DNA from: a virus
Lineage: Duplodnaviria; Caudoviricetes
Virus record (IMG/VR): IMGVR_UViG_3300031688_000022
Span: 1-54,777 of that record
DNA: 54,777 nucleotides
Strand: one strand, 5' to 3'
Part shown: positions 1 to 54,777 of the stretch, in pieces
How the letters are laid out: each line of letters opens with the position of its first letter
How positions within the stretch are numbered: the first letter of the stretch is position 1
Position numbers and translations under genes: made by a program
Notes under the pieces: generated by a model
What the model saw: the letters and a program-made list of their open reading frames with translations, nothing else
Told to the model about the DNA's origin: nothing
The model's database searches: none

Positions 1-152
1 CCTGTATCAAAAGATATTTGACCACTCATATAAAGGGTCAAGTTAGATTGGTTAACCCATCACACTGGAGTGTAGTGTCCATGTTACCAACTGCACAATT
101 TAAGAAATTTAACGTTAACACGGTGTACGCCGACAGCAGGAAACAATTCTAA
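1..152 (+). CDS. gp2: DNA end protector protein, 3' partial
   Basis: Frame 3 reads CIKRYLTTHIKGQVRLVNPSHWSVVSMLPTAQFKK..., resembling the C-terminus of T4-like gp2; stop overlaps next start (TAATG). Confidence 0.7.
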   Translation, partial: CIKRYLTTHIKGQVRLVNPSHWSVVSMLPTAQFKKFNVNTVYADSRKQF

Positions 153-865
153 TGGCAAGTATAGACGAAATCAAATACAATTTTGACACTGGTGCAAGAG
201 CAAATATGTTCTCTGTATCCATTCATTGTCCCAAACTCTTTGGTACAGCCATTGACGCTCTTAGAGTAGAGACATGTTCTTTACCAGGCCGTAAACTCGA
301 AACCCAAGCTTGGTCTGAATATGGAATGACTAGAAATCTTCCAAACGGTGTAGTAACAGACGATGGTGGTGAAATGACAATGTCATTCATTTGTGATACA
401 TCTTTTGCAGATCGGTTCATCATTGAAGCATGGCAGAGTGAGATATACGGTGGTGCTGGAGTAGATGTTGAAAGGGGTAATAGTATACACCCTATTATGA
501 AGTTCTACAACGATTATATTGGAACAGTGCATATCAATACCTTAAGAAAGGATGATAAGACCTCACTGGAGTACACTATACATGAAGCATATCCAGTCTC
601 CTTTGAGAAGATGGAGTTATCTACTGAGTCTGCAGATATATTAAAATTTTCAGTGACATTCAATTTTAGAACATGGGAAAGCAAGTATGTTCCTGCACCT
701 AAGTTGTCTGCACTAAATAAAGGTAGAAGAGTATTAGATGCTCTTCAAGAAGGACTAAAAGTGGGTTCACGATTTAATAAGAAGTCAAAAAAATTCTTAG
801 ATAAGGTGAACAAACTAGACGGTACTGCCACAAGGTTACAAACACTCCTTGGTGGCAATGGTTAA
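152..865 (+). CDS. Tail tube-fold protein (gp54-like baseplate-tube initiator, gp19 family)
   Basis: ARANMF, CSLPGR, EAYPVS and FSVTFNFRTW motifs of the gp19/gp54 family; lies between gp2 and gp26. Confidence 0.75.
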   Translation: MASIDEIKYNFDTGARANMFSVSIHCPKLFGTAIDALRVETCSLPGRKLETQAWSEYGMTRNLPNGVVTDDGGEMTMSFICDTSFADRFIIEAWQSEIYGGAGVDVERGNSIHPIMKFYNDYIGTVHINTLRKDDKTSLEYTIHEAYPVSFEKMELSTESADILKFSVTFNFRTWESKYVPAPKLSALNKGRRVLDALQEGLKVGSRFNKKSKKFLDKVNKLDGTATRLQTLLGGNG

Positions 866-884
866 TTACAATATGGAGTAGATT

Positions 885-1589
885 ATGGGATTACCAATCC
901 AAAAAGCACCTAAGTTTAAGTGCGAATTAAGTGGAGGAAAGGTCGTTGAATACAGGCCATTTCTTGTTAAAGAACAGAAGTATTTATTGATTGCAAAAGA
1001 GAGTGAAGATAACTTAGAAATTCTCGAAGCAATTAAACAGTTGGTTACAGCAGTTACAGACGGAAAAGTAAATTCCGATGAACTACCAATATTTGATTTA
1101 GAGTATTTATTTTTACAGATACGAGCTAAGTCGGTAGGAGAATCGGTTACGATTTCTCTTTACTGCAGAGAGACGGATTGTAATGGAAGTGGTTCAACAA
1201 GTGTAGACTTGAGTACTGTGGAAGTTGCAGAAGCTGTTGTTGTTGATAACAGGTTTGAATTGAATGAGACACTAGGTGTTACTCTTCGATTCCCAACCAC
1301 TCGACAACTTGCTATGGTTGACCAAAAGAAAGATGATGGGGATAAGATAATTGAACTGTTGAAATTCGGAATTGAAAGCATCTATGATGAAGAATCCGTA
1401 TATGAAGCAAACGATATATCTGATACTGAGATAGTGGAGTTTATTGAAAACTTAACACTAGACCAGTTAGAATTGTTAAGTGGGTATTTTGAAAGTATCC
1501 CTACTATTCAAAAAGAAGTAGAGTTTAAATGTGACAGCTGTGGTCAACAACAGTCGTCAATACTGAAAGGACTAGCTAGTTTTTTTTAA
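885..1589 (+). CDS. gp26: Baseplate hub subunit / assembly chaperone
   Basis: YRPFLVKEQKYLL, FDLEYLFLQIRAKSVGE, C-terminal CxxC and LASFF end typical of marine T4-like gp26. Confidence 0.85.
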   Translation: MGLPIQKAPKFKCELSGGKVVEYRPFLVKEQKYLLIAKESEDNLEILEAIKQLVTAVTDGKVNSDELPIFDLEYLFLQIRAKSVGESVTISLYCRETDCNGSGSTSVDLSTVEVAEAVVVDNRFELNETLGVTLRFPTTRQLAMVDQKKDDGDKIIELLKFGIESIYDEESVYEANDISDTEIVEFIENLTLDQLELLSGYFESIPTIQKEVEFKCDSCGQQQSSILKGLASFF

Positions 1590-1609
1590 TAGCTCTTTCC
1601 CATGAAAGC

Positions 1610-1774
1610 TTGGTGAATTATTATAACACCAACTTCCAGTTAATGCAACATCATAAGTATTCATTAACAGAGTTGGATAATATGATGCCTTGGGAAAGAG
1701 AGATATATATGAGTCTTCTCCTACAATGGTTGGAAGAAGAAGCAGAACGACAGAAGGAACGGAATAGAACCTAG
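1610..1774 (+). CDS. gp51: gp51-like baseplate hub assembly protein (not in ORF track; may be made as a frameshift extension of gp26)
   Basis: Translates NYYNTNFQLMQHHKYSLTELDNMMPWEREIYMSLL; only TTG/GTG starts ahead of the conserved block and no clear SD. Confidence 0.8.
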   Translation: MVNYYNTNFQLMQHHKYSLTELDNMMPWEREIYMSLLLQWLEEEAERQKERNRT

Positions 1775-1839
1775 ATTATGTGATACATTATGTTTTCGTG
1801 AAGTGATTTTATTAATTTTATTATATAGAGGATTAGAAA

Positions 1840-2223
1840 ATGACGGAAGAAAAAGAAGACCATTCGAGTAACGAAGTCGAGATAGACTTAGATAAGTACA
1901 TGGCACTTATCGAGAAACTGGATGAACAAGAAGATACAATTAAGGAGATGAAAGAGGATGCTATCAAGGCACGGAATCAGCTTGCTCCCCCTAAACGAAA
2001 GTTTATGGATTTGTTCTTAGACGATAATGACATTAATGAAAAGGCAATCATCGGGTTTATCTCGTTTTTCTTAATGACAGTATTTGGACTAACCGACTTA
2101 ATAACTGCGTTAGCATTTGATATGGACTTAAAGGTATCTGAGACTATCTACACATCATTCGTTGTAGTAACACTAGGTGCATTCGGAATATCAGAAGCTG
2201 GTAAAGCTTTTGGTGGAAAATAA
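1840..2223 (+). CDS. Membrane protein with N-terminal coiled coil and two C-terminal TM helices
   Basis: GAGG SD; hydrophobic segments IIGFISFFLMTVFGL and IYTSFVVVTLGAFGI. Confidence 0.7.
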   Translation: MTEEKEDHSSNEVEIDLDKYMALIEKLDEQEDTIKEMKEDAIKARNQLAPPKRKFMDLFLDDNDINEKAIIGFISFFLMTVFGLTDLITALAFDMDLKVSETIYTSFVVVTLGAFGISEAGKAFGGK

Positions 2224-2236
2224 ATAAGAGAAAGAA

Positions 2237-4321
2237 ATGGCCACTTCGGAAGACAAAAGACTACAAGCTAAACGAGAAGCAGACTCTGCTAAAAATTTAG
2301 CAGCTGCAGCTAAGCAAAGGAAAGCAAACGAAGAAGTTACTGAGGCAACGAAACCCTTATCCAATTCATTAAAAAATCTTGTGGAGAAGATGGGGTCTAC
2401 TGATAAACAACTTCAAGTAACTGTTGCAGGATTGTTAGCAAATGGTAAGGAAAGTTTTAGTAGTGCCTTAGCTGCAAGGAAAGTAACGCAAGCTTGGAAG
2501 GCCATTAATAGTGACGGAGAGATGCAAAAGCAACAAGGTCTTAAAGCTCAAGCCAATGCAGCTATTGAAGCATCATTAGAGGCACAAGAAAAACTACTTC
2601 AAGATCAGAACACGGCCGTGATATCTGCACGTGAGTCTAATGTAGAACTTGCCCGTCTACTTGGAGAGGACAAAGAGATAAGAGATAGGGAACAGAAACT
2701 AGTAGATGGTGGACTCGATGTAGTCGAAGCAAGACTAATAACCGAAAAGGAACTAGGACAGAACCTACAAGAAATAACAACAAAAGAACAATCCATACGA
2801 GACTTGTCCAATAGTGAAATTGAAAAACAAGTTAAAATCACCGAAGAACATACGGCGAATCTAGAAAAAGCAACCGATGCTGAAAACATTAGACGTGAAA
2901 AACTTAATGACGACTTAGTTGAGACCTCCAAAAGTGGGGGGTTCGACAAATTCACAGGAAGTATAAAAACTCTGACTGGTGGACTAATTGATATTGCAAC
3001 TCCCCTTGACGCTGCAACGAAACAGTTTAATGCAATGAAGGATTTAGGTTCATCTATTGCTGATGGGTTCGGAAAACTAAAAGGTGCTACCACTGGTGCG
3101 TTCAACTCTCTTGTTGGTGGTGCTGAAAACCAAGAAGATGCAAATGATTCTCTTGTAGAGTCTACCGATGAATCTACTAAAGGTATGATGAAGAATGCAG
3201 TCATACAGAGTTCAATCGGAGGGAAGTTAACTAAAATGTTAGCTGGTTTAACATTAGGCCTGGTCATGGTAATGGCAGGAATACTCCTACCCCTTATTGC
3301 TATTGGAGCTGCATTCTTTCTCATCAAAGAAGCATTAGAAAGATTTGAATTTGCAGGTGTTGGTGCTGGAATTAAACAGGGTTTTAAATCTATCGGTACA
3401 ATGTTAAAGAGCTCAGGAAAGTTAATCAGTAGTGGTATGGCAACAGTCAGAAAAGGATTGGGACTTAAACCGAAGAATGCAGTACCGAAAGTAACAGACC
3501 CTACAAAACCAAAAGTACAACTACGTCAACCAAAAGGGGCAATAGACCCTAAGACTGGTAAGGCCATTGGCGGTCAGTTTATAAAAGAAGGTGATGGAGT
3601 CATCAAGGAAGTGGCTAAGGTTGCAACCAAATCTTCAGGGTTCTTTGGTGGTCTCAAGGCATTAGCAAAAGGTGTTGTTAAGAAACTTCCTATAATCGGG
3701 GCAGCCGTAGAAACTGGTATGGATGGATTTGATCAGTTTGATAAGATGGGTGACCTAGAAGAAGCTCGTAAAAACGGAACTCTAATGAAGAAGGATGACA
3801 AGACTGGTGAAGAACGTGAGTACACGGATGAAGAGTTCGAAGGATTAAAGAGTGCATTTAAAGCAAACTTAGCTGGTTCAGTTGGTAAAGGTACTGGTGC
3901 ATTAGCAGGTGCAACAACTGGAGCTGCAGCTGGAGCTGCATTGGGTAGTGTTGTCCCAGTTGTTGGAACCTTTATTGGTGGAATACTGGGAGCAGTCATC
4001 GGTGGATATCTAGGTGGAAAAGCAGGAGATGCTATTGCTACTGGGTCAGCTGAAATGATTATGGATGGTGAGGGTAACTCTCAAAAGATTCTAGATGATG
4101 CAGCTGCAAGTATTAAGAAGGTTGACCCCAACTCTGCAAAAGCTCTTGCCGATGGACAAGTTAATCTAGATGATCAGAAGCAGACTGCTACTCAAGTTGC
4201 CATGGCCAACACATCCAACGTGATCTCTCAGGATAGTAATTCGACTGTGATACAAAGTTACTCACAGAAGGCAAGTGATGGTGGTTCAACTGTAAATCTA
4301 TTGAACCCTATTCTTACTTAA
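2237..4321 (+). CDS. Tape measure-like protein (gp29-like)
   Basis: 694 aa, helical, Ala/Gly-rich, central TM segment, glycine-zipper GAAAGAALGSVVPVVGTFIGG; follows gp26/gp51. Confidence 0.65.
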   Translation: MATSEDKRLQAKREADSAKNLAAAAKQRKANEEVTEATKPLSNSLKNLVEKMGSTDKQLQVTVAGLLANGKESFSSALAARKVTQAWKAINSDGEMQKQQGLKAQANAAIEASLEAQEKLLQDQNTAVISARESNVELARLLGEDKEIRDREQKLVDGGLDVVEARLITEKELGQNLQEITTKEQSIRDLSNSEIEKQVKITEEHTANLEKATDAENIRREKLNDDLVETSKSGGFDKFTGSIKTLTGGLIDIATPLDAATKQFNAMKDLGSSIADGFGKLKGATTGAFNSLVGGAENQEDANDSLVESTDESTKGMMKNAVIQSSIGGKLTKMLAGLTLGLVMVMAGILLPLIAIGAAFFLIKEALERFEFAGVGAGIKQGFKSIGTMLKSSGKLISSGMATVRKGLGLKPKNAVPKVTDPTKPKVQLRQPKGAIDPKTGKAIGGQFIKEGDGVIKEVAKVATKSSGFFGGLKALAKGVVKKLPIIGAAVETGMDGFDQFDKMGDLEEARKNGTLMKKDDKTGEEREYTDEEFEGLKSAFKANLAGSVGKGTGALAGATTGAAAGAALGSVVPVVGTFIGGILGAVIGGYLGGKAGDAIATGSAEMIMDGEGNSQKILDDAAASIKKVDPNSAKALADGQVNLDDQKQTATQVAMANTSNVISQDSNSTVIQSYSQKASDGGSTVNLLNPILT

Positions 4322-4533
4322 CAGTCGGTATGTCGTAAGACATCTAACTTAAGACTTGTCTTCCTATCGTATTTTGTTTTGTCCGAATGGACTTGTGATT
4401 TAGAATGAGGTGGAGTCACCTTTCTAGTTTTAACTTCAATTTTTTTGCCAAAGATCGTATCCCAGTTATCTGTATAACCAGTTCCCGATTCGGGTCTCCT
4501 CTTGGAACCCTTTCCACCATGTGTTGAACTCAT
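4318..4533 (-). CDS. Small basic hypothetical protein
   Basis: 71 aa ORF tightly coupled downstream of bS21; GGKGSKRRP and HSDKTKYDRK motifs. Confidence 0.65.
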   Translation of the reverse strand: MSSTHGGKGSKRRPESGTGYTDNWDTIFGKKIEVKTRKVTPPHSKSQVHSDKTKYDRKTSLKLDVLRHTDC

Positions 4534-4535
4534 GA

Positions 4536-4775
4536 TTATCTAGCACCTCTTCTCCGTACTGGTTGCAATCTTTTCTTTGCTTCCAATTTCTTTGTTCTCT
4601 TTAACTGTTGATTCTTTTGATTCTTCACAGCATTAGGTTTATCAAAAAACTGTCGTTCTCTAACCTCTTGAACAATACCTGCGTTGTCACACTCCTTCTT
4701 GAACCTGCGTATAAGTTGATCAAACCCCTCTACGTTTCGATTCTTCGGATTTACTTTTGGTGTTACATTCGGCAT
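4536..4775 (-). CDS. rpsU: 30S ribosomal protein bS21 homologue
   Basis: EGFDQLIRRFKKECDNAGIVQEVRERQFFDKP matches the S21 core; basic C-terminal tail. Confidence 0.9.
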   Translation of the reverse strand: MPNVTPKVNPKNRNVEGFDQLIRRFKKECDNAGIVQEVRERQFFDKPNAVKNQKNQQLKRTKKLEAKKRLQPVRRRGAR

Positions 4776-4802
4776 AATTTTCTACTGGTTAAATTCTTAA
4801 AT

Positions 4803-4962
4803 AAGTGAAGAGTTGCCCCACGCCTTACAGCATTCCCGCTCTCTTCCGACCAATCCGCTAGTTTGCTATTGACCTTTCCCTTACTGAGTACCCCCTTTTT
4901 ATCCACGGTCTCAGTGAATGTCTCAACTATATCAATCTTATTCATAATGTATATTGAGACAT
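4803..4962 (-). ncRNA. Candidate structured RNA between gp32 and bS21
   Basis: Stems 4918-4926/4954-4962, 4883-4888/4910-4915 and 4807-4812/4841-4846, with an inner GUAA-tetraloop hairpin at 4820-4833. Confidence 0.5.
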
Positions 4963-4980
4963 CCCAAACAGAACCTAGTC

Positions 4981-5871
4981 CTAACTTTCGTTAGCTAGGT
5001 TCTTAAAGTAATCCATTGCGTCATCTTCTTCCACTTGGGGAGTAGATTCTGCAGCTTGCATTACTGGTTCACTTGCAACAGTTTCAGTTACAACATTAGC
5101 CCAAGGAACTTCTTCCAAGTCTTCTGCTACACTTTCTGCTGTTGAAGTCGATACACTACCTATAACTCTTTCGAATTTCTCTTTGAGTTCCTCGTAAGTT
5201 TTAAACTCACTAGGGGCAATGACACTCGACAACGAATGCACTTGACTAAACGTACTGTTTAGTTTTGCTTCGTCAGCAAACAATGGTGCTGGATTTTCGA
5301 ACTCTGATTTATCATAGTTCCAGTATCCGTCAACTTTTCTGATCTTAATCTTAAAGTTTGCACCTTCTTCTCTTAGATCAAAAGGGTTGATTGCTTTCTC
5401 GTCTGCAAATGCAGGGGAGATTGCTTCCTTCAGAGCTTCAAAGATTTTTTTACCAAAACGGTATTTAAATACCTTCCCTTCGTTATCGGGGTTCTTAGGG
5501 TCTGATATAACATAGACATTAGAAACATAATGCAGTCTGCGTTTTTGTTTCCTTGCAATCTCTTTGTTTGCTTCAATCCCAGTATTCCACAACGTAGAGT
5601 TGTACTCAGAGACAGGGTCTTGTTTATTAAGAGTCGTTAAAGACTTCTCAATATACCATCCGCCTGGCCCTTGAAAACCGTGGTCGAAGTAAGATACCCA
5701 TGGCATCTCTTCACCCTCGGGGGTCGGTAAGAAACGAACCACTGCATAGCCGTTACCAGTTTTATCTAGTTCGGGTTTCCACAACGTATCGTCATTAAAG
5801 GATTTTTTTTCACCACCTGTTGGTGAAGCAGTTTCCATGGCTGCTCTTAGTTTATCTAAACTACTACTCAT
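4981..5871 (-). CDS. gp32: Single-stranded DNA-binding protein
   Basis: LWKPELDKTGNGYAVVRFLP, HGFQGPGGWYIE, YWNYDKSEF, acidic tail DDAMDYFKNLA. Confidence 0.97.
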   Translation of the reverse strand: MSSSLDKLRAAMETASPTGGEKKSFNDDTLWKPELDKTGNGYAVVRFLPTPEGEEMPWVSYFDHGFQGPGGWYIEKSLTTLNKQDPVSEYNSTLWNTGIEANKEIARKQKRRLHYVSNVYVISDPKNPDNEGKVFKYRFGKKIFEALKEAISPAFADEKAINPFDLREEGANFKIKIRKVDGYWNYDKSEFENPAPLFADEAKLNSTFSQVHSLSSVIAPSEFKTYEELKEKFERVIGSVSTSTAESVAEDLEEVPWANVVTETVASEPVMQAAESTPQVEEDDAMDYFKNLANES

Positions 5872-5920
5872 TGTATTCTCCTATTGTATTAACAATTTTA
5901 TTAACAATTTTATTAAAGAC
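5872..5920 (-). promoter_or_regulatory. AU-rich repeated gp32 leader (putative autogenous translational operator)
   Basis: AATAAAATTGTT-AATAAAATTGTT-AATACAAT-AGGAG-AATACAATG directly before the gp32 start. Confidence 0.5.
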
Positions 5921-5926
5921 TGTTCC

Positions 5927-6649
5927 TTAAAACAATCCATCTTCATCTCCCAGCCAGTCTTGACCGAGAATCCATTCCTTACTACTTTCGTAATAAGGTA
6001 GTTCATTATACTTTATTTCGTCCTCTTTGTCTAGAGGGTTTCTAAAGTATACTGAACCTTTTCCATAGTACCATTCTAATAGTGCTATGAACTGACTCCT
6101 TTGTGCAGTAAGCACTCTAGAGTCGGTATTGTATTTATGCAAATAGTTCTCACTACCTTCATAAGTATTTTCATATGAGTCACCTTCCAGTGCATCAAAT
6201 CCAATTAAATTAATCTTCTCATACCCCTGCATCATTGCATATCCCAAAGCAGACATTCCTGTAAACAGGTTCTTCAGTTCGGGATAGTTGTATGTTACTA
6301 TAAGTTCGGGTCGTGTTAATCCTAAAATTTGTGTTGCACCAATCTCCCCTTGAATGATGAAGTGGGTATCTGACTCCACTTTCGTCACAGTAACATCAGG
6401 CAAAGTCATTGATAACATTTCCATCATCTCCATCGGTATGGGGTCGATGTCTGCAAATGCTACAAGGTTTCCTAAGTAGTAACCCGACTCTACGATCTCT
6501 TGTTGCATTGGCATATCAACTGCAAACAAAATATCACAACACTTAGTGTCACGATACACTGCATTACAACCCCACACTTCATGACCAATCTCCGTGAGAT
6601 CAATGTCTTTTCGTGAAGGGCCGTTTCCTACTATTGTTACTTCGAGCAT
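5927..6649 (-). CDS. Conserved T4-like hypothetical protein, MptE/glycosyltransferase-like Rossmann fold
   Basis: IVGNGPSR, VWGCNAVYRD, LFAVD, INLIGFD motifs. Confidence 0.6.
   Translation of the reverse strand: MLEVTIVGNGPSRKDIDLTEIGHEVWGCNAVYRDTKCCDILFAVDMPMQQEIVESGYYLGNLVAFADIDPIPMEMMEMLSMTLPDVTVTKVESDTHFIIQGEIGATQILGLTRPELIVTYNYPELKNLFTGMSALGYAMMQGYEKINLIGFDALEGDSYENTYEGSENYLHKYNTDSRVLTAQRSQFIALLEWYYGKGSVYFRNPLDKEDEIKYNELPYYESSKEWILGQDWLGDEDGLF
6005..6033 (-). promoter_or_regulatory. sigma70-type promoter for gp32, inside the upstream CDS
   Basis: TAGACA-N17-TATAAT. Confidence 0.65.
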
Positions 6650-7230
6650 AATTCTATAAGTTTCGTTTTAAATTTTAAGTGGTCATAAGATATGAAAGAC
6701 TTGTACTTGTTTATCTTAATGTGTGCTTCGGGGTACACTACCTGTTCCTGTATACGTCCCTTCCAGTCTTTGGTGAACCCAATGATCTCATCCATGATAC
6801 AGATCGTCTCTATAGACACACTCTTTGCAAGATACGACTTAAGTAGGATAGGGTGTTGTCCACCTTTAACCTCTAAGACTTTGTTGATATCTTTCTTTGC
6901 GAGTAAGTCCGACACTTCTGTTTCAAACATATATGTAAGTTTCTGATTCCGTTTCTTCCACTCTTTATATGTCTTGACACACTCATCGTCTAACAGATCA
7001 CCTGCCCAACTATCTTTCTGAGATAGGTTAGCAATGTAAAAATCTTGAAGTTCTTGTTTGTGAATTTTGAACAACTTACCGAAATGGTATTTGTCCTTTC
7101 GTTTTAGAAAAGAGTTGATGTCTGATTTAACCTTACCATTATACTTTACGAAATCGTAATCCTTGGAATAGAAGTGTAACTTAATTCCTAGATACAATGT
7201 GTAAGCATCATAACCTTCTCTACTGGTCAT
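6637..7230 (-). CDS. gp59: Helicase loader
   Basis: YTLYLGIKLHF..YDFVKYNGK, FLKRKDKYHF, HPILLKSYL; start placed at the ATG at 7230. Confidence 0.9.
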   Translation of the reverse strand: MTSREGYDAYTLYLGIKLHFYSKDYDFVKYNGKVKSDINSFLKRKDKYHFGKLFKIHKQELQDFYIANLSQKDSWAGDLLDDECVKTYKEWKKRNQKLTYMFETEVSDLLAKKDINKVLEVKGGQHPILLKSYLAKSVSIETICIMDEIIGFTKDWKGRIQEQVVYPEAHIKINKYKSFISYDHLKFKTKLIELCSK

Positions 7231-7573
7231 CCGTTTCCTTGACGAATACTCCGTCAATCATACGACCTTTACGATCTTTAATATCGTTGTATGCAACCTC
7301 TAAACAATGCTCCATAGATAGACCATTCCTTACTGCAATGTTTATCAGTACTACCATGATGTCTCCGATGTCGTCTGCAATATCTTTGTTCTTGCAAATG
7401 TTATCTGACAACTCACCACATTCCTGTATGAGTTTCATGAACTGATCTTTGTCTGTTGCACCCTCGATCAGATTCCTGTCTTGATGCCACTGACTTACTT
7501 TTGCAATAAGTTGTGGTAGTCTTGAATCGTAATCTGTTGCCCTATGCCCAACTGATAATTTGTCTTTATACAT
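7220..7573 (-). CDS. MazG-like NTP pyrophosphohydrolase
   Basis: QFMKLIQECGEL, DDIGDIMVVL, CLEVAYNDIKDRKG..FVKE. Confidence 0.85.
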   Translation of the reverse strand: MYKDKLSVGHRATDYDSRLPQLIAKVSQWHQDRNLIEGATDKDQFMKLIQECGELSDNICKNKDIADDIGDIMVVLINIAVRNGLSMEHCLEVAYNDIKDRKGRMIDGVFVKETDDQ

Positions 7574-7875
7574 TAAATAATAATCTTCTTTTCAGGTGGG
7601 GTTGCGATTACTGGAGCTCCATTAACTGCTTGGTTATGTGCTTCTGCAACCTGTGGGTTTGTTGGAATAACAAATACATAAGATGCAAATGTTACTTCTG
7701 TTGGATTGAGATCACCTGTTACGGCAATTCCTCTTGCAAATCCCATCCCACCTTCGGGAGTACTTACAATCATTTTTGGGTTGGTAAGTGTAATACTAGT
7801 CGGAGAGATATCTTTATATTCTCCAACGTACTCGCCACTCACTGTTACTACTGATACTATATCACCTTTTTTCAT
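7573..7875 (-). CDS. Hypothetical protein, possible Sm/SH3-like fold
   Basis: GDIVSVVTVSGEYVG beta-rich pattern; translationally coupled. Confidence 0.65.
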   Translation of the reverse strand: MKKGDIVSVVTVSGEYVGEYKDISPTSITLTNPKMIVSTPEGGMGFARGIAVTGDLNPTEVTFASYVFVIPTNPQVAEAHNQAVNGAPVIATPPEKKIII

Positions 7876-7886
7876 AATTTTTCCTG

Positions 7887-8126
7887 TTATTCAAAGAACC
7901 GTGTAATGGTTCCTTTAGTTGTTTTACCTCTATTGACCATGTTGAGACCTTGTGCCTCAGCTTCCAATTTATCTTTAAGGGGTTGAGATATTAACCTCTT
8001 TGCTGATTCGGGTTCCAGTTTATTGTCGTCACATATCTTTACGATTGCACCCATTACATCGGTGCCTCCTCGAATCAATAACTTCTCGACTTGTTCCGTG
8101 AACTCTTTCTTACTTATCATACTCAT
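7887..8126 (-). CDS. gp33: Late transcription coactivator
   Basis: FTEQVEK, AIVKICDDNKLEPESAKRLISQPLKDKLEAEA. Confidence 0.85.
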   Translation of the reverse strand: MSMISKKEFTEQVEKLLIRGGTDVMGAIVKICDDNKLEPESAKRLISQPLKDKLEAEAQGLNMVNRGKTTKGTITRFFE

Positions 8127-8813
8127 TTAAACTCCGTGTAAACTTCCATAACGTTGTCTTAAGGCATATAGCTTATCGACATACTCTCTAGGGTCTGCTT
8201 CAAATACTTGACATCCCCCACCATCAACTGCAACAATCGCTACGATTGTATCCACTACTTCACCAGTAAGTTCCTCTACCATGATTGCATAAGCAGTCAT
8301 TTGGTGGAACCATGGGTCTGCCATGTACTCTTCTTTGTACTTACTACTTGTCTTGAAGTCAATAATACAAAGTTCATTGTCCCAAATACCAACACAATCT
8401 ACTTGTCCTGCCATTTGCAATGAGTCTGAATACATACCTGCTTCTAAAGCAATCGGTATGATATCATCTAAAACTGGTTGTACTGCTCTGAACATAGACT
8501 CGTCTAAGATATTCTCAAAGACAATGTCCTCTTCTGCACGAAGATATTGTTCAAATAACGAATGCATTTTAGTACCACGTTTGGCTGCAGTCGTTGAAAT
8601 TCTATTTGCCTCTTCAGCACCTACTCGTTCTCTCCACAACTTAATGTGATCTCGTGTAAGCAACCCAGTCACAGTCGTGACACTTGGGTATTTTTGACCT
8701 GTTGGTGTTTGGTAGAATCTCTTACCGTTCTCCTGCACACGAGTCATACTGTCTTGTAGTGATTCTAAATCACCTAATGATATAACGTTTAAGTTTTCGT
8801 TTAAGTTTTCCAT
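8127..8813 (-). CDS. PD-(D/E)xK exonuclease (RecB/Cas4-like fold)
   Basis: YPSVTTV, RGTKMH, AGQVDC, IIDFKTS, QMTAYA. Confidence 0.85.
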   Translation of the reverse strand: MENLNENLNVISLGDLESLQDSMTRVQENGKRFYQTPTGQKYPSVTTVTGLLTRDHIKLWRERVGAEEANRISTTAAKRGTKMHSLFEQYLRAEEDIVFENILDESMFRAVQPVLDDIIPIALEAGMYSDSLQMAGQVDCVGIWDNELCIIDFKTSSKYKEEYMADPWFHQMTAYAIMVEELTGEVVDTIVAIVAVDGGGCQVFEADPREYVDKLYALRQRYGSLHGV

Positions 8814-8819
8814 AATGTA

Positions 8820-8848
8820 ATTATACTCTTATTTACCCTGTAGGTCAA
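8820..8848 (-). promoter_or_regulatory. sigma70-type promoter, probably giving a leaderless exonuclease mRNA
   Basis: TTGACC-N17-TATAAT, ATG 6 nt downstream. Confidence 0.65.
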
Positions 8849-9134
8849 GGTGTTTTTTCACGATTGCTCGGGTCTTCACTTCTTTAGTAGTCTTTCTATG
8901 ATATCGTTCACCCATAGGTGAATCGGGATTAGCTGCACCGATACGACTGAACACTTCGTTCATTCCACTATCGGGTTTTACACGATCACCCACTCCACCG
9001 ACATCGCCAGGGGCAGTGAATATTCGTTGTTCAATATGAGGGTTCTCTTTTAAGAAGTCATCTTTACCACTGAAGGAAAGAAACTTTTCTAGACGTTCAC
9101 CAGTGGTGGTGTTTTCAAATTCGTAAATTGGCAT
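8829..9134 (-). CDS. FmdB-like putative regulatory protein
   Basis: MPIYEFENTTTGE..FLKENPHIEQ N-terminus; TAATG coupling at 9134. Confidence 0.65.
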   Translation of the reverse strand: MPIYEFENTTTGERLEKFLSFSGKDDFLKENPHIEQRIFTAPGDVGGVGDRVKPDSGMNEVFSRIGAANPDSPMGERYHRKTTKEVKTRAIVKKHLDLQGK

Positions 9135-9673
9135 TATGCAACTTCCATAAAATAGGGGATAGGTCTTGCCGTCCATTTGGCAATATCTTTCTTATACTTA
9201 GCATAGTATTTATGGTATGCATCAACAGCCGAAATTGATTTGACATCATCTGGCATTGCCTGTGGTGGATATCTCCATGCACATAAATCTATATTGTTTG
9301 GTAGGATGTTCAGACAGTCCCTTAGTTTTGAATCAGTAAGGTGTACCTTCCCATACCTTAGTGTGTACTCGTCACATAACGATGTAAACAAGTCATAAGT
9401 GTATTGATAGTGTACTGCATTTTCTCGTACCCAAATTGCACTGGGGTGATTGACATGTCCTGCTTTGTAAACTACACTCTCCATCTCTGCAGTGGGTAGT
9501 CTCCATCTTTGAATTCTACGACCACTGGAAGAATCTATGTAGTGTTTCCCATCTAACATTCTATGTGCTGTAGACATAAGTTGTGCATACTCTATAATCA
9601 TCTTGACTACATGTTTGTCACAATGCATCTCTGCACAAATGGTTGGGTCTTCATCTAGGTAAAATATATTCAT
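9134..9673 (-). CDS. Pyrimidine dimer DNA glycosylase-like (DenV superfamily) protein
   Basis: MNIFYLDEDP..HCDKHVVKMIIEYAQLMSTAH, HVNHPSAIW, PQAMPD. Confidence 0.75.
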   Translation of the reverse strand: MNIFYLDEDPTICAEMHCDKHVVKMIIEYAQLMSTAHRMLDGKHYIDSSSGRRIQRWRLPTAEMESVVYKAGHVNHPSAIWVRENAVHYQYTYDLFTSLCDEYTLRYGKVHLTDSKLRDCLNILPNNIDLCAWRYPPQAMPDDVKSISAVDAYHKYYAKYKKDIAKWTARPIPYFMEVA

Positions 9674-9897
9674 AGTTTCTTTGCGAACTCTAGTTCTTGT
9701 TTCCAGTTAGTTTTGTTAGTCTCGTAACATGGACTATCTTGTTGGCATACGATGAGTCTTCCACCATCCATATCCAATCTAATACTATCCGTAGTAAATG
9801 TACCACCATGTCTGTCATGTACAATACAATCTATTATACCATTTTTATCTTCTTTGTGCAAGTGATTAACTAGGAACAGTAATTCTTCTTTTTTCAT
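9670..9897 (-). CDS. Hypothetical protein
   Basis: Start at MKKEELL (9897), coupled to neighbours. Confidence 0.6.
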   Translation of the reverse strand: MKKEELLFLVNHLHKEDKNGIIDCIVHDRHGGTFTTDSIRLDMDGGRLIVCQQDSPCYETNKTNWKQELEFAKKL

Positions 9898-9898
9898 G

Positions 9899-11299: not shown

Positions 11300-11311
11300 A
11301 ATGTATTTCTT

Positions 11312-11812: not shown

Positions 11813-11814
11813 CT

Positions 11815-12015: not shown

Positions 12016-12016
12016 C

Positions 12017-12815: not shown

Positions 12816-12816
12816 T

Positions 12817-13338: not shown

Positions 13339-13373
13339 ATTTTATTTCTCTCTTGGTTTCTCATTATATACAT

Positions 13374-13403: not shown

Positions 13404-13408
13404 CCCCT

Positions 13409-14082: not shown

Positions 14083-14087
14083 GTCTT

Positions 14088-42822: not shown

Positions 42823-45079
42823 CTATAATCTCACCTTGTGGTAAGGGTTCATCTTTAATCACGTCTTCAGTCTTACCATCCATAGTGTTTTGGTAGTAAG
42901 ATGTCTTCCATCCATATTTGTAAGTATTCAATAAGTCTTTTGCCATGACCGATACTGGTACTTCATTGTTATCAAAATTCTCGGGATTGTAACTCCAGTT
43001 ACCACTGATTGCTTGGTCAAAGAACTTCTGCATCACTGCAACTGTTTTAATGTATCCCTCGTTATCAGGCATATCCCATAGTAATGTGTAATTGTTTTTC
43101 AGTATAGAATACTGAGGTACTACTTGTTTAAGTGTTCCTTTTTTGCTCTTCTTGACACTTAGGTAGTCTCTTGGTGGTTCTATTCCGTTTGTTGCATTAG
43201 AGACGACTGAGGACGATTCTGAGGGCATCTGAGCAGTAAGTGTCGAGTGTCGTAATCCGTGTACTTTAATCCGTGTTCTTAGTCTTTCCCAGTCCATTTT
43301 TAGGACATTAGGTACGATTGTATCTACTTCTTTCTTATAATGATCTATTGGTAATTTCCCTTGTGCATACATGGTTCTATCGAACCAATCACATTGACCC
43401 TTCTCGGATGCAATTTGATTAGACGCACATAGTAAATGATACTGAAATTCTTCTGTAAGATCATGCACCAATTGATGTGCTTGGGGGTCATCATACTTGA
43501 CCTTGTTCTTTGCAAGGAAATGTGCAAGACCGATGTAACCAATTCCTAGTGATCGTCTTGCAAGAGTTGATCTCTTTGCAGCTTCTACTGGGTATTCTTG
43601 GTAATCAATTAGTTCTTCTAATCCTCTTACTGCAAGATCACATAGACCTTGTAGTTCATCCATCTTAATGATGCCTACGTTGATTGCACTTAGAATGCAT
43701 AGTGCAATCTCACCTTCACCATCAATATGTGTGATAGGGTCGGTGGGAAGAGTGATCTCTTGACATAGGTTACTCATGTAAACTTTGTCTTGGAAACTAC
43801 TATGGGAATTGCAATGGTCTATATTCATAATATAAATCCTACCTGTCTCAGCTCGTTCTTTCAACATAGCCGTAAACAATTCCCTTGCACTAATCTTCGT
43901 TTTAGGTACTGAAGTTGCTCTCTCATACTTTTCGTAAAGTTCATCAAAGCCGTCAGTTCCAAATGCCTCATACAAGCCTGGCACTTCGTGGGGTGAGAAT
44001 AATGTGATGTCTTCGTTCTTCAAGAATCTCTTATAGAACAGTTCAGATAACTGAATAGAGTAATCTAATTTTCGTACTCTGTTATCTTCGGTTCCTTTGT
44101 TATTCTTTAGGACGATGATATCACCGATCTCTTGGTGCCAGATAGGGAAATGAACTGTTGCACTTCCTCCTCTCACACCATTCTGAGTACAACATCTTAC
44201 TGTCGTCTCGAATTTCTTTAGGAAAGGTATTACACCAGTATGCTGTACCTCTCCACCTCGTATTTTTGAACCAAGTCCTCGTATTCGTCCTGCGTTAATT
44301 CCAATACCAGCTCTTTGTGCAACGTACCTTCCGATGGCCATATCTGAGGAAAATATACTGTCGAGGGAATCTGCAGAGTCAACCAAAACACAACTCGCAA
44401 ATTGTCGTAATGGTGTCCTGACCCCTGCCATAATGGGTGTGGGTATGTTAATTTTGTACGTGGATATTGCATCGTAATACCTTTTGATATATTCTAAACG
44501 GTTGTCTTCGGGATAGTTTCTGAACAATGTCATTGCAATCAACATATACATGAACTGAGGTGTCTCAAACAACGTGTTGTCTGACCTGTCCTGTACTAGA
44601 TACTTGTCTACGATCTGTTGTAGACCAGCATAGGTGAATGTCACATCTCTTGAATGTTTGATCACCCGATCTATTTGTCCTATTTCTTCTTTGGTGTATG
44701 ACTTGAGGATGTCCTTATCATATACACCCTTACTGATATTCCTTTTTATGATATCATAAAGTGGTGGATAGATTGTTGAGTCTTGCCACTTAGTGTTGAA
44801 TACAGATTTCTGTACTCCGAATAGTAATAGCCGTGCAGCAACGAACTGATAATTTGGATGTTCCAAACTAATTAAATCCGATGCTGACTTGACTAATATT
44901 TGTTGAATGTCTTTTGTAGTTATACCATCAAAGAATTGAAGACCACTGTTCATTTCAACCAGTGATTCTGATACTCCTGTAACGTCTCTACATGCTTTCT
45001 CCACCATCTTATGAATCTTATCTAAGTCAATGTCTACCCTGCTTCCGTCTGACTTAAGTACTCTAAATGGTGCGTTCAT
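42788..45079 (-). CDS. nrdA: Class Ia ribonucleotide reductase alpha subunit
   Basis: ATP cone, PTPIMAGVRT, QFASCVL, SNLCQEI, MPSESSS, KTSYY, C-terminal CDAC. Confidence 0.98.
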   Translation of the reverse strand: MNAPFRVLKSDGSRVDIDLDKIHKMVEKACRDVTGVSESLVEMNSGLQFFDGITTKDIQQILVKSASDLISLEHPNYQFVAARLLLFGVQKSVFNTKWQDSTIYPPLYDIIKRNISKGVYDKDILKSYTKEEIGQIDRVIKHSRDVTFTYAGLQQIVDKYLVQDRSDNTLFETPQFMYMLIAMTLFRNYPEDNRLEYIKRYYDAISTYKINIPTPIMAGVRTPLRQFASCVLVDSADSLDSIFSSDMAIGRYVAQRAGIGINAGRIRGLGSKIRGGEVQHTGVIPFLKKFETTVRCCTQNGVRGGSATVHFPIWHQEIGDIIVLKNNKGTEDNRVRKLDYSIQLSELFYKRFLKNEDITLFSPHEVPGLYEAFGTDGFDELYEKYERATSVPKTKISARELFTAMLKERAETGRIYIMNIDHCNSHSSFQDKVYMSNLCQEITLPTDPITHIDGEGEIALCILSAINVGIIKMDELQGLCDLAVRGLEELIDYQEYPVEAAKRSTLARRSLGIGYIGLAHFLAKNKVKYDDPQAHQLVHDLTEEFQYHLLCASNQIASEKGQCDWFDRTMYAQGKLPIDHYKKEVDTIVPNVLKMDWERLRTRIKVHGLRHSTLTAQMPSESSSVVSNATNGIEPPRDYLSVKKSKKGTLKQVVPQYSILKNNYTLLWDMPDNEGYIKTVAVMQKFFDQAISGNWSYNPENFDNNEVPVSVMAKDLLNTYKYGWKTSYYQNTMDGKTEDVIKDEPLPQGEIIDDGEDCDACAI

Positions 45080-51400: not shown

Positions 51401-51432
51401 TCTCTCCTACCCATATATTTAGGTGGTAAAGT

Positions 51433-54006
51433 TTAACCCATATATGGTGAAAGAATAGCTTGCATGGCATCAGAGTCATGTTTCTTCATGATGTAGTAGA
51501 TTTCGTCTCTTACGAATGTGTCCATTCTACCCCAAACTTTGTCCCACGTATCAGAACCCTTCCTACTAATGATTGCTGGTTCCCCATCATCACTCTCTAC
51601 TTCAATGCCCTTTTTAAGTTGTGCTATGATTGCACCAACTTCTTTGTCATTGATGGTCTCTGCCTTCTCTAATTTCTTTAGGTCGGGATAGACTTTTGAA
51701 CTGATTTTTAACGTAGACTTAACAACTTTCTCTAAGATTTCCTCTTCACCCATGTTAAGTTTAGGTTTTTTATACTTTCCTACTGGTGATTTAGCTTTGT
51801 TTCTATCGACTGATTCTTTAAAAGTAAACCCAATCTTAGGTAAGGTGTTCTCACCATAGTTTGCATAGTCTAATGCTTTCTTAACAGATTTGGCCTTTGA
51901 AAGACCCTTCTTAAGTTTCTCAATTTTCTTGATTGCAAAAGACATAGCACCATCGTGATCAAGTGCAATTTTTACTGCTAATTTCTCGAACTGGTCTGTG
52001 ACCTTGTTCTTTCTAAAGTATACAGATATCTCTTGACCTGTTAGTTTACTTCCTGACATAGAAGGTTTTTCAGTTAAGTTCTGAGACTCTTCTTTAATTC
52101 CTTTTCCTACAGCAGTGTCGTATAACTTCTTACCGTCTGCACCTTTTAGAGTCGTTGCATCTGTCGGGTTAGAAACTGCTTTGTATTCTGAACCTTCTTT
52201 CATACCCATAATACGTTGTGCAAGACCTACAAGTTTTTTAACATCGGAGTTTTCCATGTTTGCTTTGTTCTTGTCATTTACCTTTTCGTATGCTTGAGTG
52301 ATAACACTTGCAGTGAACATGTCTACCATGATTCCACCGATTTTCTTTGCACCCTTAGTGTTAACGATTTCTTGAAAAGCAGGTATTAGGTTCTTACCTT
52401 CAGTGAGTACTTCTTCTTCTATAATATCCATGTTTTCTCCTTCAACCGATTCGTTTCTTCTCTTCGGTTTTTGACTGTAATAGTCTTTTAAAAATGATTT
52501 TGCCATTGATAAAGGAATCTTATATTCCTTTGCAAGGTCTTTTGCAGATATTCCATCTTGGATATCTACTAACATATCTGACATCACACCTTCTTCTAGG
52601 AAGATACCATGTTCGATTGCAGATTCCATAACGAATGATTCATCGAAATGAGAACCTTGTCCACTAGTAGATGGGTCTCCGTATGTTGACTTACCTCGGA
52701 CAACACCATCAAGTTTTCTTAGGTTTGATTTAGTTCCATCTAGTTGTACTAGTGTAACACCACCACTACCTTTTGTGAACTTAACTTTCAACTTCATCAA
52801 CTTGGCTGCACTTGTGAATGCATCTGATTCGGGTTTTTGGATACCTTTAACTTGGTATACGATCTTCTCTTCTGAGATAGTTTCTTCTCTTAATCCTTTT
52901 AGGTTACCACGGTATTTTATTTTACCTTCTACGGCTTCGTCTTCACCAATTACTGCACCTTTCAATCTTCGGGAATCTGAAGGAGTTGCTTTATCCCAAC
53001 CACCACCGTGGTCTTCTGCAGTCTTTAGTTTACTTAATGAAACATATAGAGGTTGTAAGTCTACACCATCATCATAATCGGATGTTTTACTGTAAGATTT
53101 GTCAATCATAAGACCGACTTTGTATGCACTTGAACCTTCTTGAGGTGTTGAGTAAACTGGTTTCTGTTTGATTTTATTTGTTCTACAATATGCATCAACC
53201 ATCTTCTTTGCAGTTTCAAAGTCCTTCTTATTCTCTTCTGAAGTGACTCTGTCTCCTTTACCACCTCTGAATTGAATGTAGAAATCTACACATCTAGAAT
53301 ATACTTTATCTGCATAAGGTTTGAAATTCTCAGAAACATCTTCTTTAATTTTACCTTTAACTATATCTTCAAGGTCACGAGACAACCAATCAAAAAACTC
53401 ATCGGGGTTATCAGTCTTAATTTCATTGTTGTCCATTGCCCAAGTTGTTAGGTCATCTTCTGCTTTCTTACCTGCCGACCCTGAGAATGATAAATCACCA
53501 GTTTTGTATGCTTTTGTAAGTTCTCTTTTATGTTTCTTGAAGATATCTTTTATCTTCATTGATTCTTCAACTGATTCTTTCTTGTCCTTGACTGCATTCA
53601 TATAGCCTGGCAATACCGCTGCTTTTGGGTCACCCATGTTCTTTGCACCTTTCTTTAGTGCCTCTGAACTGTTTCGTGCTTTAACTACTACACTACGACC
53701 TTTCTTTAATTTGTTGATGTCTTTGGTTACTGTTACTCTCCAAAAATCCATTCCTTCCATGAATGCTTCGACTTCTTCGTTCACGTCTCTTACCGTGAAA
53801 TCTTCGTTGTAAGGGAATCCCTTTAATGGGTTGTCAAAAACCTGAGAGAAATTCTTTGATCGTTCTTTCTTCTTCTCTAAATTTTTTGCAGCTGAAAGTT
53901 TTAGATACTCATCAACCGTCTGGCCTGGGGTATCACCTTTGTATGCAGCTGCAATATCTTTAGTACCCACTTCATGGACACCGTTGTTTTTCTTATTTCC
54001 TGACAT
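51433..54006 (-). CDS. Large modular Lys/Glu-rich protein, putative virion-internal polyprotein
   Basis: 857 aa; short domains separated by Glu-rich linkers. Confidence 0.75.
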   Translation of the reverse strand: MSGNKKNNGVHEVGTKDIAAAYKGDTPGQTVDEYLKLSAAKNLEKKKERSKNFSQVFDNPLKGFPYNEDFTVRDVNEEVEAFMEGMDFWRVTVTKDINKLKKGRSVVVKARNSSEALKKGAKNMGDPKAAVLPGYMNAVKDKKESVEESMKIKDIFKKHKRELTKAYKTGDLSFSGSAGKKAEDDLTTWAMDNNEIKTDNPDEFFDWLSRDLEDIVKGKIKEDVSENFKPYADKVYSRCVDFYIQFRGGKGDRVTSEENKKDFETAKKMVDAYCRTNKIKQKPVYSTPQEGSSAYKVGLMIDKSYSKTSDYDDGVDLQPLYVSLSKLKTAEDHGGGWDKATPSDSRRLKGAVIGEDEAVEGKIKYRGNLKGLREETISEEKIVYQVKGIQKPESDAFTSAAKLMKLKVKFTKGSGGVTLVQLDGTKSNLRKLDGVVRGKSTYGDPSTSGQGSHFDESFVMESAIEHGIFLEEGVMSDMLVDIQDGISAKDLAKEYKIPLSMAKSFLKDYYSQKPKRRNESVEGENMDIIEEEVLTEGKNLIPAFQEIVNTKGAKKIGGIMVDMFTASVITQAYEKVNDKNKANMENSDVKKLVGLAQRIMGMKEGSEYKAVSNPTDATTLKGADGKKLYDTAVGKGIKEESQNLTEKPSMSGSKLTGQEISVYFRKNKVTDQFEKLAVKIALDHDGAMSFAIKKIEKLKKGLSKAKSVKKALDYANYGENTLPKIGFTFKESVDRNKAKSPVGKYKKPKLNMGEEEILEKVVKSTLKISSKVYPDLKKLEKAETINDKEVGAIIAQLKKGIEVESDDGEPAIISRKGSDTWDKVWGRMDTFVRDEIYYIMKKHDSDAMQAILSPYMG

Positions 54007-54777
54007 TTGGTAATGCTCCCTTTTCTTTTAATTTCTTCATTCTTAGTCTAGGCTCTTTCCTGTTATAGTTTTGAGACACTAGGGATAAGTTATTCTTATC
54101 ATTGTTTAGTGGGTTGTTATCCTTGTGATGCACATCCTTACCATCACCTGCTTTGGCCTTACCCTCTTTTTCCATTTGTCTACGAGCTCTTTTTCTCGCA
54201 GCGTTTCTTTCCATCTGTTCGGGTTTACCAAGGTAGTTTTCCCTTTCTTTCTTGTAATCCCTTCCTTCCGACATGTGGTATCCACTACCATCACAATGAG
54301 TACACTCTTTATCGTCTACTTCACCAGAGCCTTTACATTCGGGACAAGTCACCTTTGATTCTTCTTTAGGCACACAATTTGGAACTTGTTTACCGTTCTT
54401 CTTCTTCATACCCACTTGTTTATGAGAATCCCAGCAAGGGTCTTCCTCATTGATTAGGTCTTCTTCTACTGACTCTCCAAACTTAAGGAATAACTTACCC
54501 TTCTCTTGTGCTTGGTCTGTTACCTTATGACCAACCATTGCACCTATAGTGTTAATCATACCCAATCCTTTTTCAGGATTTTTATTGTATTCTTTGTCTA
54601 ATCGTTCTGCAACTTTCTTAGTGATCAATTTAATGATATCAAAAGCACTTGTTACGAGTTTACCTTCCTCTACTTCAGACTCCTCGTTCTTGTTCTTATT
54701 CTTTGCATCATAGTCTTTGATAGACTTTTTTGCAGACTTCATCATTCTTTTTTGATGGGCCTTTTGTTGAGACTGAT
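53993..54777 (-). CDS. Modular protein with DnaJ-type Zn finger and HNH-like C-terminus, 5' partial
   Basis: Frame open to the window edge; DPCWDSHKQVGMKKKNGKQVPNCVPKE, CPECKGSG..CTHCDGSG, KDVHHKDNNPLNN..NL..NR. Confidence 0.75.
   Translation of the reverse strand, partial: QSQQKAHQKRMMKSAKKSIKDYDAKNKNKNEESEVEEGKLVTSAFDIIKLITKKVAERLDKEYNKNPEKGLGMINTIGAMVGHKVTDQAQEKGKLFLKFGESVEEDLINEEDPCWDSHKQVGMKKKNGKQVPNCVPKEESKVTCPECKGSGEVDDKECTHCDGSGYHMSEGRDYKKERENYLGKPEQMERNAARKRARRQMEKEGKAKAGDGKDVHHKDNNPLNNDKNNLSLVSQNYNRKEPRLRMKKLKEKGALPNVRK

Follow-up and report, generated by a model that had tools for sequence, protein, structure and literature searches.

What decides which restriction-type sites a phage genome keeps? 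The question is raised by a 54,777-bp stretch of viral DNA, IMG/VR record IMGVR_UViG_3300031688_000022 (hereafter the window), which is a whole IMG/VR contig of 39% G+C, rated ~30% complete. It comes from a marine T4-like myovirus that has Methylophilales phage Melnitz as a relative, and covers ~30% of its genome. A preliminary description of the window had claimed that CCNGG and GGNCC occur in it only where they overlap GCC or GGC. The claim holds, and the pattern read as a whole is very probably the trace of a phage-encoded modification of C after G.

In a full count, CCNGG occurs 15 times (14 CCWGG and one CCSGG), always as GCCNGG and/or CCNGGC, and GGNCC occurs 21 times, every time as GGSCC. 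Here a CCWGG site is called ‘flanked’ when it has G before and/or C after it, and ‘unflanked’ (HCCWGGD) when it has neither a 5′ G nor a 3′ C. Gene calls gave 93 genes covering 94% of the window, and the null consisted of 400 shuffles in which synonymous codons were permuted inside each amino-acid class, so that proteins and codon usage were held fixed. Against this null, HCCWGGD is observed 0 times with 25.3 ± 4.3 expected (shuffle minimum 12), HCCNGGD 0 times with 33.5 expected, GGWCC 0 times with 32.8 ± 4.8 expected (shuffle minimum 17), and CCGG once with 42.5 expected. On the other hand, GGSCC (21 versus 11.0) and GCCWGGC (4 versus 0.3) lie above the null. Because ~79% of shuffled CCNGG sites are unflanked, the chance of finding 15 of 15 flanked is ~6e-11. 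The flank rule is far beyond chance. The sites are as follows.

284 to 288: A-CCAGG-C, Pro-Gly as CCA GGC on the plus strand
3259 to 3263: G-CCTGG-T, not Pro-Gly (GGC CTG GTC)
5663 to 5667: G-CCTGG-C, Pro-Gly as CCA GGC on the minus strand, within G-P-G-G
9007 to 9011: G-CCAGG-G, Pro-Gly as CCT GGC on the minus strand
15946 to 15950: G-CCAGG-C, Pro-Gly as CCT GGC on the minus strand
18229 to 18233: G-CCTGG-T, Pro-Gly-Pro as CCA GGC CCT on the minus strand
21196 to 21200: T-CCAGG-C, Pro-Gly in TCG CCT GGA of the RimK-like gene, the only GGA case
21811 to 21815: G-CCTGG-A, Pro-Gly as CCA GGC on the minus strand
27358 to 27362: A-CCTGG-C, not Pro-Gly (GGC CAG GTA on the minus strand)
34192 to 34196: G-CCGGG-A, the sole CCGG, read as CCC GGC in the open reading frame (ORF) 34077-34781 and as TTC CCG GCA in ORF 33485-34327
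36135 to 36139: G-CCTGG-T, Pro-Gly as CCA GGC on the minus strand
36457 to 36461: G-CCTGG-T, Pro-Gly as CCA GGC on the minus strand
43977 to 43981: G-CCTGG-C, Pro-Gly as CCA GGC on the minus strand, in nrdA
53606 to 53610: G-CCTGG-C, Pro-Gly as CCA GGC on the minus strand
53924 to 53928: G-CCTGG-G, Pro-Gly as CCA GGC on the minus strand
5666 to 54761: 21 GGSCC sites, starting at 5666, 6618, 13634, 15134, 18226, 23340, 25664, 25802, 27322, 29338, 32866, 33383, 33513, 39844, 42176, 42177, 45398, 46655, 48073, 49399 and 54757

The positions traced in the preliminary description were mostly right, except that its ‘53626’ is really 53606 and that the CCWGG sites at 3259 and 27358 had been overlooked. 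Every GGSCC holds GGCC and hence GCC, and 13 of the 21 are Gly-Pro pairs written with GGC or GGG. The GGNCC half of the claimed rule is real as a pattern, but it needs no special explanation beyond the GCC context, because GGSCC always holds GCC on one strand while GGWCC never can.

Codon choice at the forced sites is equally strict. The Gly codon after Pro is GGC in 11 of 12 pairs versus 49/1056 elsewhere (Fisher p = 8e-14), with GGC making up 60 of the 1073 Gly codons in the gene calls and 17 of these 60 adjoining a Pro codon. The claimed share of 12 in 13 is recovered once the CCC-GGC at 34192 is counted, which requires ORF 34077-34781 to be the gene at that place. The sole Pro-Gly without GGC is, as had been reported, TCG-CCT-GGA in the RimK-like gene, whose flank comes from the G of TCG. 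Likewise, Gly is written GGC or GGG in each of the 13 Gly-Pro pairs (versus 164/1057 elsewhere, p = 5e-11), as had been claimed.

Such codon preferences could in principle come from a codon-pair, translational or mutational bias unlinked to nucleases, and GC-containing words are indeed generally low under the shuffle null. However, the two CCWGG sites outside the Pro-Gly frame (3259 and 27358) lie in other reading frames and are flanked as well, the rule is strand-symmetric, the absent words include non-coding-neutral Type II-like sites, and related genomes of similar composition lack the rule. A bias of this kind is hardly credible as the cause.

The ‘G before CC’ rule extends to other words. 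Under the same null, CCAGA/TCTGG occurs 9 times versus 77.5 expected, and seven of the nine survivors are GCCAGA.

21521 and 44138, plus strand: GCCAGA
9249, 14197, 21573, 33210 and 53919, minus strand: GCCAGA
54324, plus strand, and 46324, minus strand: ACCAGA

In the related contigs G010 and G002, CCAGA is preceded by G in 24 of 37 and 17 of 17 copies, respectively, but in just 25 of 195 copies in class-B relatives, which do not obey the rule. CCAGA is non-palindromic and unrelated to Pro-Gly, and therefore the rule is not a property of one site. Also avoided in the window are GGATC/GATCC (0 versus 72.0 expected), AGATCT (0 versus 17.3), CGACG (3 versus 49.7) and ACGGG/CCCGT (3 versus 35.8). 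CCTCC lies below the null (21 versus 80.2) and TGCA above it (429 versus 272).

All depleted 4-6-mers of six genomes (the window, G010, G001, G002, G003 and Melnitz) were then scanned without bias for an excess of G at position −1. A strong excess was seen solely in the CC-starting words CCWGG, CCAGA, CCTGA, CCCGT and CCTCC, with p from 1e-6 down to 4e-21, and no comparable excess in words starting with CT, CA or CG. The subset of avoided words varies by genome, while the protective flank is constant. Flanked copies stay near their zero-order expectation, as seen in G010 for GCCWGGD (43 versus 37) and GCCAGA (24 versus 37), with HCCWGGD at 0 versus 78. Words whose Cs can never follow G (GGWCC, GGATC and AGATCT) are wholly absent. 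GCC as the target context is strongly supported by these footprints.

Two narrower forms of the rule were rejected. Methylation of GGCC alone cannot be the shield, as only some flanked sites overlap GGCC and the −2 base is not G, and a single degenerate asymmetric motif, HCCAGR, is ruled out by ACCAGGC (284) and TCCAGGC (21196).

The scan also bears on a reading without any modification, in which the nucleases themselves fail to cut when G precedes CC, their true specificity being HCC followed by the rest of the site. A homodimeric enzyme recognising HCCWGGD would yield the palindromic part of the pattern. However, at least five CC words (CCWGG, CCAGA, CCTGA, CCCGT and CCTCC) would all have to exclude G at −1, and they are avoided in combinations that differ by genome; we know of no enzyme specificity that excludes G at −1 of CC. 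We consider this reading very improbable.

The rule is lineage-wide. Searching IMG/VR with the window's 857-aa protein gave 36 loci, of which 24 have neither HCCWGGD nor GGWCC, while the remaining 12 have 68 HCCWGGD and 71 GGWCC. Over 502 kb from seven rule-obeying genomes or fragments (the window, G010, G001, G002, G003, G006 and 50 kb of Melnitz), none of 149 CCWGG sites is unflanked, and GGWCC numbers 0 with GGSCC at 221. The first 50 kb of Melnitz alone show HCCWGGD 0 versus 24 expected, 18 G-flanked sites and GGWCC 0 versus 36 expected. Three controls, G007, P-HM1 and S-B43, do not follow the rule, having 11, 9 and 62 HCCWGGD and 23, 22 and 37 GGWCC, respectively. Relative to its Markov expectation, GGCC reaches 1.3-2.05-fold in the seven rule-obeyers and 2.8-fold in the 13.9-kb contig G005, versus 0.32-0.66-fold in the three controls.

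GATC is frequent in the window (127) and G002 (136) and near-absent in other rule-obeyers (G010 0, G001 0, G003 2, G006 1, and 4 in the 50 kb of Melnitz). This contrast among rule-obeying relatives points to a separate difference inside the lineage in GATC restriction or Dam.

An enzyme with a fitting specificity is carried by the lineage. A C5-methyltransferase (MT; PF00145) of 423-429 aa is present in the relatives G001, G002, G004, G010 and G015, where it overlaps the gene of a Tet_JBP dioxygenase (PF12851, referred to as TET) of 333-349 aa, and Melnitz is also MT/TET-positive. Among the MT-carrying IMG/VR loci, 39 of 40 have no HCCWGGD and no GGWCC. The sole exception, L043, with three unflanked CCWGG and two GGWCC, may be of chimeric or recombinant origin.

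Metavirome C5-MTs paired with TET have been described to methylate GpC[C/T], two members of one clade methylating GC[C/T/G] but not GCA, after which TET makes 5-hydroxymethylcytosine (5hmC) that is extended by glycosyltransferases (Burke et al. 2021, PMC8256090). In that account, the clade I/A neighbourhood comprises HSP and redoxin, plus a P-loop kinase or a glycosyltransferase, whereas clade II/B has a polymerase gene upstream, as in Melnitz. The 146-kb, MT/TET-positive contig G010 has the order HSP20, redoxin, MT, TET, a 378-aa protein of no firm family, a PF18751 P-loop nucleotide kinase, lysozyme and DNA polymerase B. The HSP20 and redoxin neighbourhood is found in G010, G001, G002 and 10 polymerase-centred loci. 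Just upstream of hsp20 in G010 lie genes for a FecR-domain protein and a CHASE2-adenylate/guanylate cyclase (L054 4460-8509), which are kept in G001, G002, G003 and G006.

Window 849-51182 and G010 7347-56109 are collinear, and therefore the cassette of the window's phage would lie past the window's right end, in a hypervariable island that we place ~12-16 kb beyond it. Part of this region is available in another contig.

53070 to 54777, plus strand: overlap of the window's right end, 99.88% over 1708 bp, with the start of IMG/VR contig G005 (L110)

G005 runs 12.2 kb past the window through polymerase B, lysozyme, a 132-aa protein, a spermine-synthase-like protein (PF01564) and, at its cut end, an ORF like that of a TET-associated glycosyltransferase (TAGT), with 28% identity (E 3e-15) to a PF20691 protein. 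An 81% homologue of this ORF matches PF20691 at 5e-8, above cut-off, and also phrog_842, the beta-glucosyl-HMC-alpha-glucosyltransferase family. Thus candidate tailoring genes were found in both contigs, the TAGT-like ORF in G005 and the PF18751 kinase in G010. Where DNA upstream of the TAGT homologue is available, TET is directly upstream in five of five contigs (L112, L113, L114, L115 and G002), and MT precedes TET in all four that reach further (L113, L114, L115 and G002), L112 starting too near TET. The G005 extension itself obeys the rule, with two CCWGG, both flanked, and no GGWCC.

These observations suggest the following course. The C5-MT would methylate the C of G-C-[C/T], or of G-C-[C/T/G] in the clade with the HSP/redoxin neighbourhood, TET would turn 5-methylcytosine into 5hmC, and a glycosyltransferase would decorate the latter. 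A CC-starting nuclease site preceded by G would then carry a bulky, modified first C. The shield would work from either strand, GCCWGG being CCWGGC on the other, and one modified strand appears to be enough. Restriction pressure from enzymes of the CCWGG, GGWCC or GGNCC, CCGG, GGATC, AGATCT and CCAGA types, presumably belonging to the host, would purge the copies that cannot be shielded, while shielded copies would stay about as frequent as chance predicts. At a Pro-Gly dictated by the protein, the rare GGC would supply GCC on the opposite strand, and Gly-Pro would use GGS to place GGCC in the site. In the window's population, the island holds the TAGT-like and aminopropyltransferase-like genes, MT and TET are predicted just upstream, and GCC would be modified in the virions.

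Modification of C after G explains the flank that protects CC words only, the undepleted flanked copies, the absence of GGWCC, GGATC and AGATCT, the tolerance of GGCC and the writing of Pro-Gly as CCW GGC. As its first option, the preliminary description had proposed that a site is kept only if it holds a modified C in GCC context, and this is the best-supported reading in view of CCAGA, the CC-word scan and the lineage's MT/TET cassettes, whose type acts on G-C-[C/T] (PMC8256090). We judge it probable that cytosine modification in GCC context shields CC-starting sites while unshieldable ones are purged, and regard this as the best explanation. For the window's phage, the likeliest route is MT/TET/glycosyltransferase, given the TAGT-like ORF in which G005 ends, and we hold this with moderate confidence.

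Not everything fits, and several observations weigh against this explanation. One CCGG preceded by G (34192, GCCGGG) had been cited in favour of the rule; the site is as described, but it carries little weight, as G-flanked CCGG is itself strongly depleted, with 1 in the window versus 25 by zero-order expectation and 0 in relatives with two other cassette types. GCAGCA is avoided (2 versus 33.2 expected by shuffling) although its opposite strand always carries GCT, yet GCAGC is not (57 versus 59.0), and the avoidance of GCAGCA argues against full protection of GCT. The G preceding CTGACG in 7 of 11 copies in G010 is the one, weak, signal as to GCT, CT-starting avoided words being few; the sites of CTGACG, and of CGACG as a word bearing on GCG, are likewise sparse. 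In S-B43, whose modification at GC has been shown experimentally, GGCC is avoided (10 versus 31.5), and P-HM1, with no TET homologue among tblastn hits, is mildly skewed in the same direction (HCCWGGD 9 versus 26 expected). At 100001-150000 of P-HM1 (L108), flanked CCWGG numbers 20 versus 13 expected, and GGCC (6) and CCGG (0) are avoided. The genes in question also lie outside the window. As had been stated, no methyltransferase is visible in it (profiles PF00145, PF01555 and PF02086 giving 0 matches each), nor was PF12851 found in the window or the overlapping contig G005, so that MT and TET in the window's own phage would follow from synteny upstream of TAGT.

Neither PF12851 nor PF00145 was found in the 31-59 kb contigs G003, G006, G011, G012, G013 and G014, and the rule holds in such relatives; therefore MT/TET is not necessary for it. 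A survey of 80 polymerase-centred loci showed cassettes to be exchanged between HSP20/redoxin and lysozyme/DNA polymerase B, where at least four alternatives occur. After removal of near-duplicates, the counts were as follows.

MT/TET cassette, 9 loci, 139 kb: unflanked CCWGG 0, flanked 38, GGWCC 0
~470-aa PF01555-like methyltransferase (SPPY motif), 16 loci, 197 kb: unflanked 0, flanked 50, GGWCC 0
DruA-like, cytidylyltransferase, GT1-like and TAGT, 5 loci, 62 kb: unflanked 0, flanked 15, GGWCC 0
Other island contents, 3 loci, 48 kb: unflanked 0, flanked 8, GGWCC 0
DruA-like protein alone, 2 loci, 20 kb: unflanked 8, flanked 0, GGWCC 5

In L119, whose polymerase is 100% identical to that of G005, the genes upstream of the spermine-synthase-like gene are different, the place of TAGT in G005 being taken by a 424-aa protein along with cytidylyltransferase-like and kinase-like proteins. 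The alternative cassettes also include a sugar kinase-like protein with a cytidylyltransferase and a 424-aa protein. L180, L192 and L181, with a 68%-identical polymerase and a DruA-like gene alone in the island, do not follow the rule.

The footprint under other cassettes would mean either that these hit the same context or that there is a shared cause. By the first, the same GCC logic would be served in the window's phage by another enzyme of the island, the PF01555-like methyltransferase or the DruA-like/glycosyltransferase set, instead of C5-MT/TET. Relatives with these cassettes obey the rule as strictly, show no PF00145 or PF12851, and the island differs among contigs with identical polymerase genes. 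Nevertheless, G005, overlapping the window, holds the glycosyltransferase whose homologues stand beside TET and MT in every contig reaching far enough. The PF01555-like protein (L128:1238-2659) belongs to an unnamed family of 2,938 proteins at E <= 1e-5 with the invariant motifs D-x-x-x-G-W-G and T-S-P-P-Y-F; its AF2 model is confident (pLDDT 82.7) and matches by Foldseek generic class I methyltransferases alone, at TM <= 0.30. The DruA-like model is poor (pLDDT 44), and profile searches with both against PDB sequences gave nothing meaningful. For the window's phage, a different cassette is an unlikely source of the modification.

A host orphan methyltransferase could instead mark GCC (or GGC) on replicating phage DNA, the shield not being a phage function at all. 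The rule is independent of the cassette in the island, and the Melnitz host also encodes a type II DNA methylase (PMC9004378). On the other hand, the rule fits the published specificity of the lineage's own MT, and L180 and L192, with their minimal island, have 8 unflanked and 0 flanked CCWGG between them. This possibility appears slim compared with a modification encoded by the phage.

Restriction-site avoidance is a general phenomenon in phage and bacterial genomes. Here, as there, palindromic and Type IIS-like words are absent far past a codon-preserving null, but avoidance hinges on one flanking base and spares flanked copies altogether. In T-even phages, every C is replaced by glucosyl-hydroxymethylcytosine before replication as a shield against restriction. 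The glycosylated 5hmC proposed here would be a shield of the same kind, and the TAGT homologue matches phrog_842, but it would be confined to C after G and added post-replicatively, with the rest of the genome kept site-free.

The description as an uncharacterised system does not stand, as the C5-MT/TET/glycosyltransferase hypermodification pathway has already been published (PMC8256090). The relatives' adjacent PF00145 and PF12851 genes, their clade I/A or II/B neighbourhoods and the fit of G-C-[C/T] to GCC agree with the published C5-MT/TET (5mYOX)/glycosyltransferase clusters. The differences are that the genes lie outside the window, that the work described in that paper is biochemical, in E. 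coli, and that it reports no genome-wide footprint in the parts bearing on these clusters, whereas here the genome appears recoded around the modification. Restriction protection is offered there as a prediction, and broad protection was judged unlikely in a later preprint (10.1101/2023.12.21.572611), as GpC alone is modified, and post-replicatively. The Melnitz paper suggests that the methylase might protect against restriction, and the word ‘dioxygenase’ appears nowhere in its main text (PMC9004378).

Two other viral enzymes act at GC. CmoX of Synechococcus phage S-B43, which makes 5-carboxymethylcytosine at GC (PMC12783734), is the closest solved structure to the relatives' MT (8yf3, E 7.6e-66). 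However, the CmoA/CmoX/CmoY system is described to use carboxy-SAM and an amide ligase and no TET (PMC12783734), and a 50-kb piece of S-B43 lacks the rule and avoids GGCC. M.CviPI of a Chlorella virus, named in PMC8256090, is also an orphan C5-MT from a virus, its GC target spanning 2-3 bases, but a eukaryotic-virus enzyme without TET coupling. A full-text literature search, with supplements outside its scope, found no report of flank-dependent site avoidance. The kind of system is known, while the genome-wide, flank-conditional footprint, persisting across swapped cassettes, appears to be new.

Although the enzymes have been described, what they do for the phage is openly debated, and the footprint in natural populations answers the doubts about protection raised in the preprint (10.1101/2023.12.21.572611). 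By implication, nucleases of several specificities are blocked by the modification in vivo, and one strand modified at the outer C suffices. Synonymous codon choice creates the shield, and unshielded sites number zero over hundreds of kilobases, so that partial modification and site purging would act together as a single strategy. From such a footprint, the target context of phage DNA-modifying enzymes not yet characterised could be read by sequence alone, and two cassettes of this sort are flagged. The cultured phage Melnitz shows the same rule, so a testable system exists.

It is conceivable, though less likely than not, that GCC protection is a conserved ‘immunity code’ of a marine myovirus lineage, run by three or more unrelated cassettes that replace one another in the same island. 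These would be C5-MT/TET with a kinase or glycosyltransferase, the PF01555-like methyltransferase with ~2,900 metagenomic homologues, and the DruA-like/glycosyltransferase set without MT or TET. If so, the remaining sites all lie beside G, and therefore an incoming cassette must hit the same context, its specificity being locked in by the genome sequence. In a bolder variant, some of the avoided words would be targets of phage-borne nucleases that degrade host DNA; CCWGG, GGWCC, CCGG, GGATC and AGATCT are avoided in common by the window's lineage and Melnitz, whose host is known.

The genes of the window itself form a T4-like myovirus module for replication and nucleotide metabolism. Those identified code for a baseplate protein, gp32, gp59, RNase H, a UvsW-like helicase, NrdA, NrdB, the RimK-like ATP-grasp protein, a radical-SAM/SPASM protein, an HNH endonuclease and the following.

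23443-24639: carbamoyltransferase
32259-33017 and 36995-37618: 2-oxoglutarate (2OG) oxygenases, PF13640-type

The preliminary description had named the last three as candidate tailoring enzymes. They are present, but nothing shows them to be such: neither oxygenase is Tet_JBP, there being no Tet_JBP match anywhere in the window, and the relevant island is that beside the DNA polymerase gene, past the right end.

By megablast against cultured phages, positions 1-20000 of the window gave no match, and nrdA was the sole match in its right third (~70%, in cyanomyoviruses). A cyanophage identity of the lineage is unsupported, psbA being absent from the five related contigs G010, G001, G002, G003 and G007, one of them rated 80% complete. 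Because of this absence, and because the closest cultured carrier of the relevant modification genes is Melnitz, which infects an OM43 methylotroph, the window's phage is probably not a cyanophage.

Large conserved proteins without a Pfam family at E <= 0.001 are those of 857 aa (51433-54006, minus strand), 509 aa (38231-39760, minus strand), 503 aa (17391-18902, minus strand) and 694 aa (2237-4321, plus strand). Directly upstream of the 857-aa gene, a 250-aa protein (53993-54745, minus strand) combines an HNH_3 endonuclease domain with a zinc-finger-like CXXC stretch.

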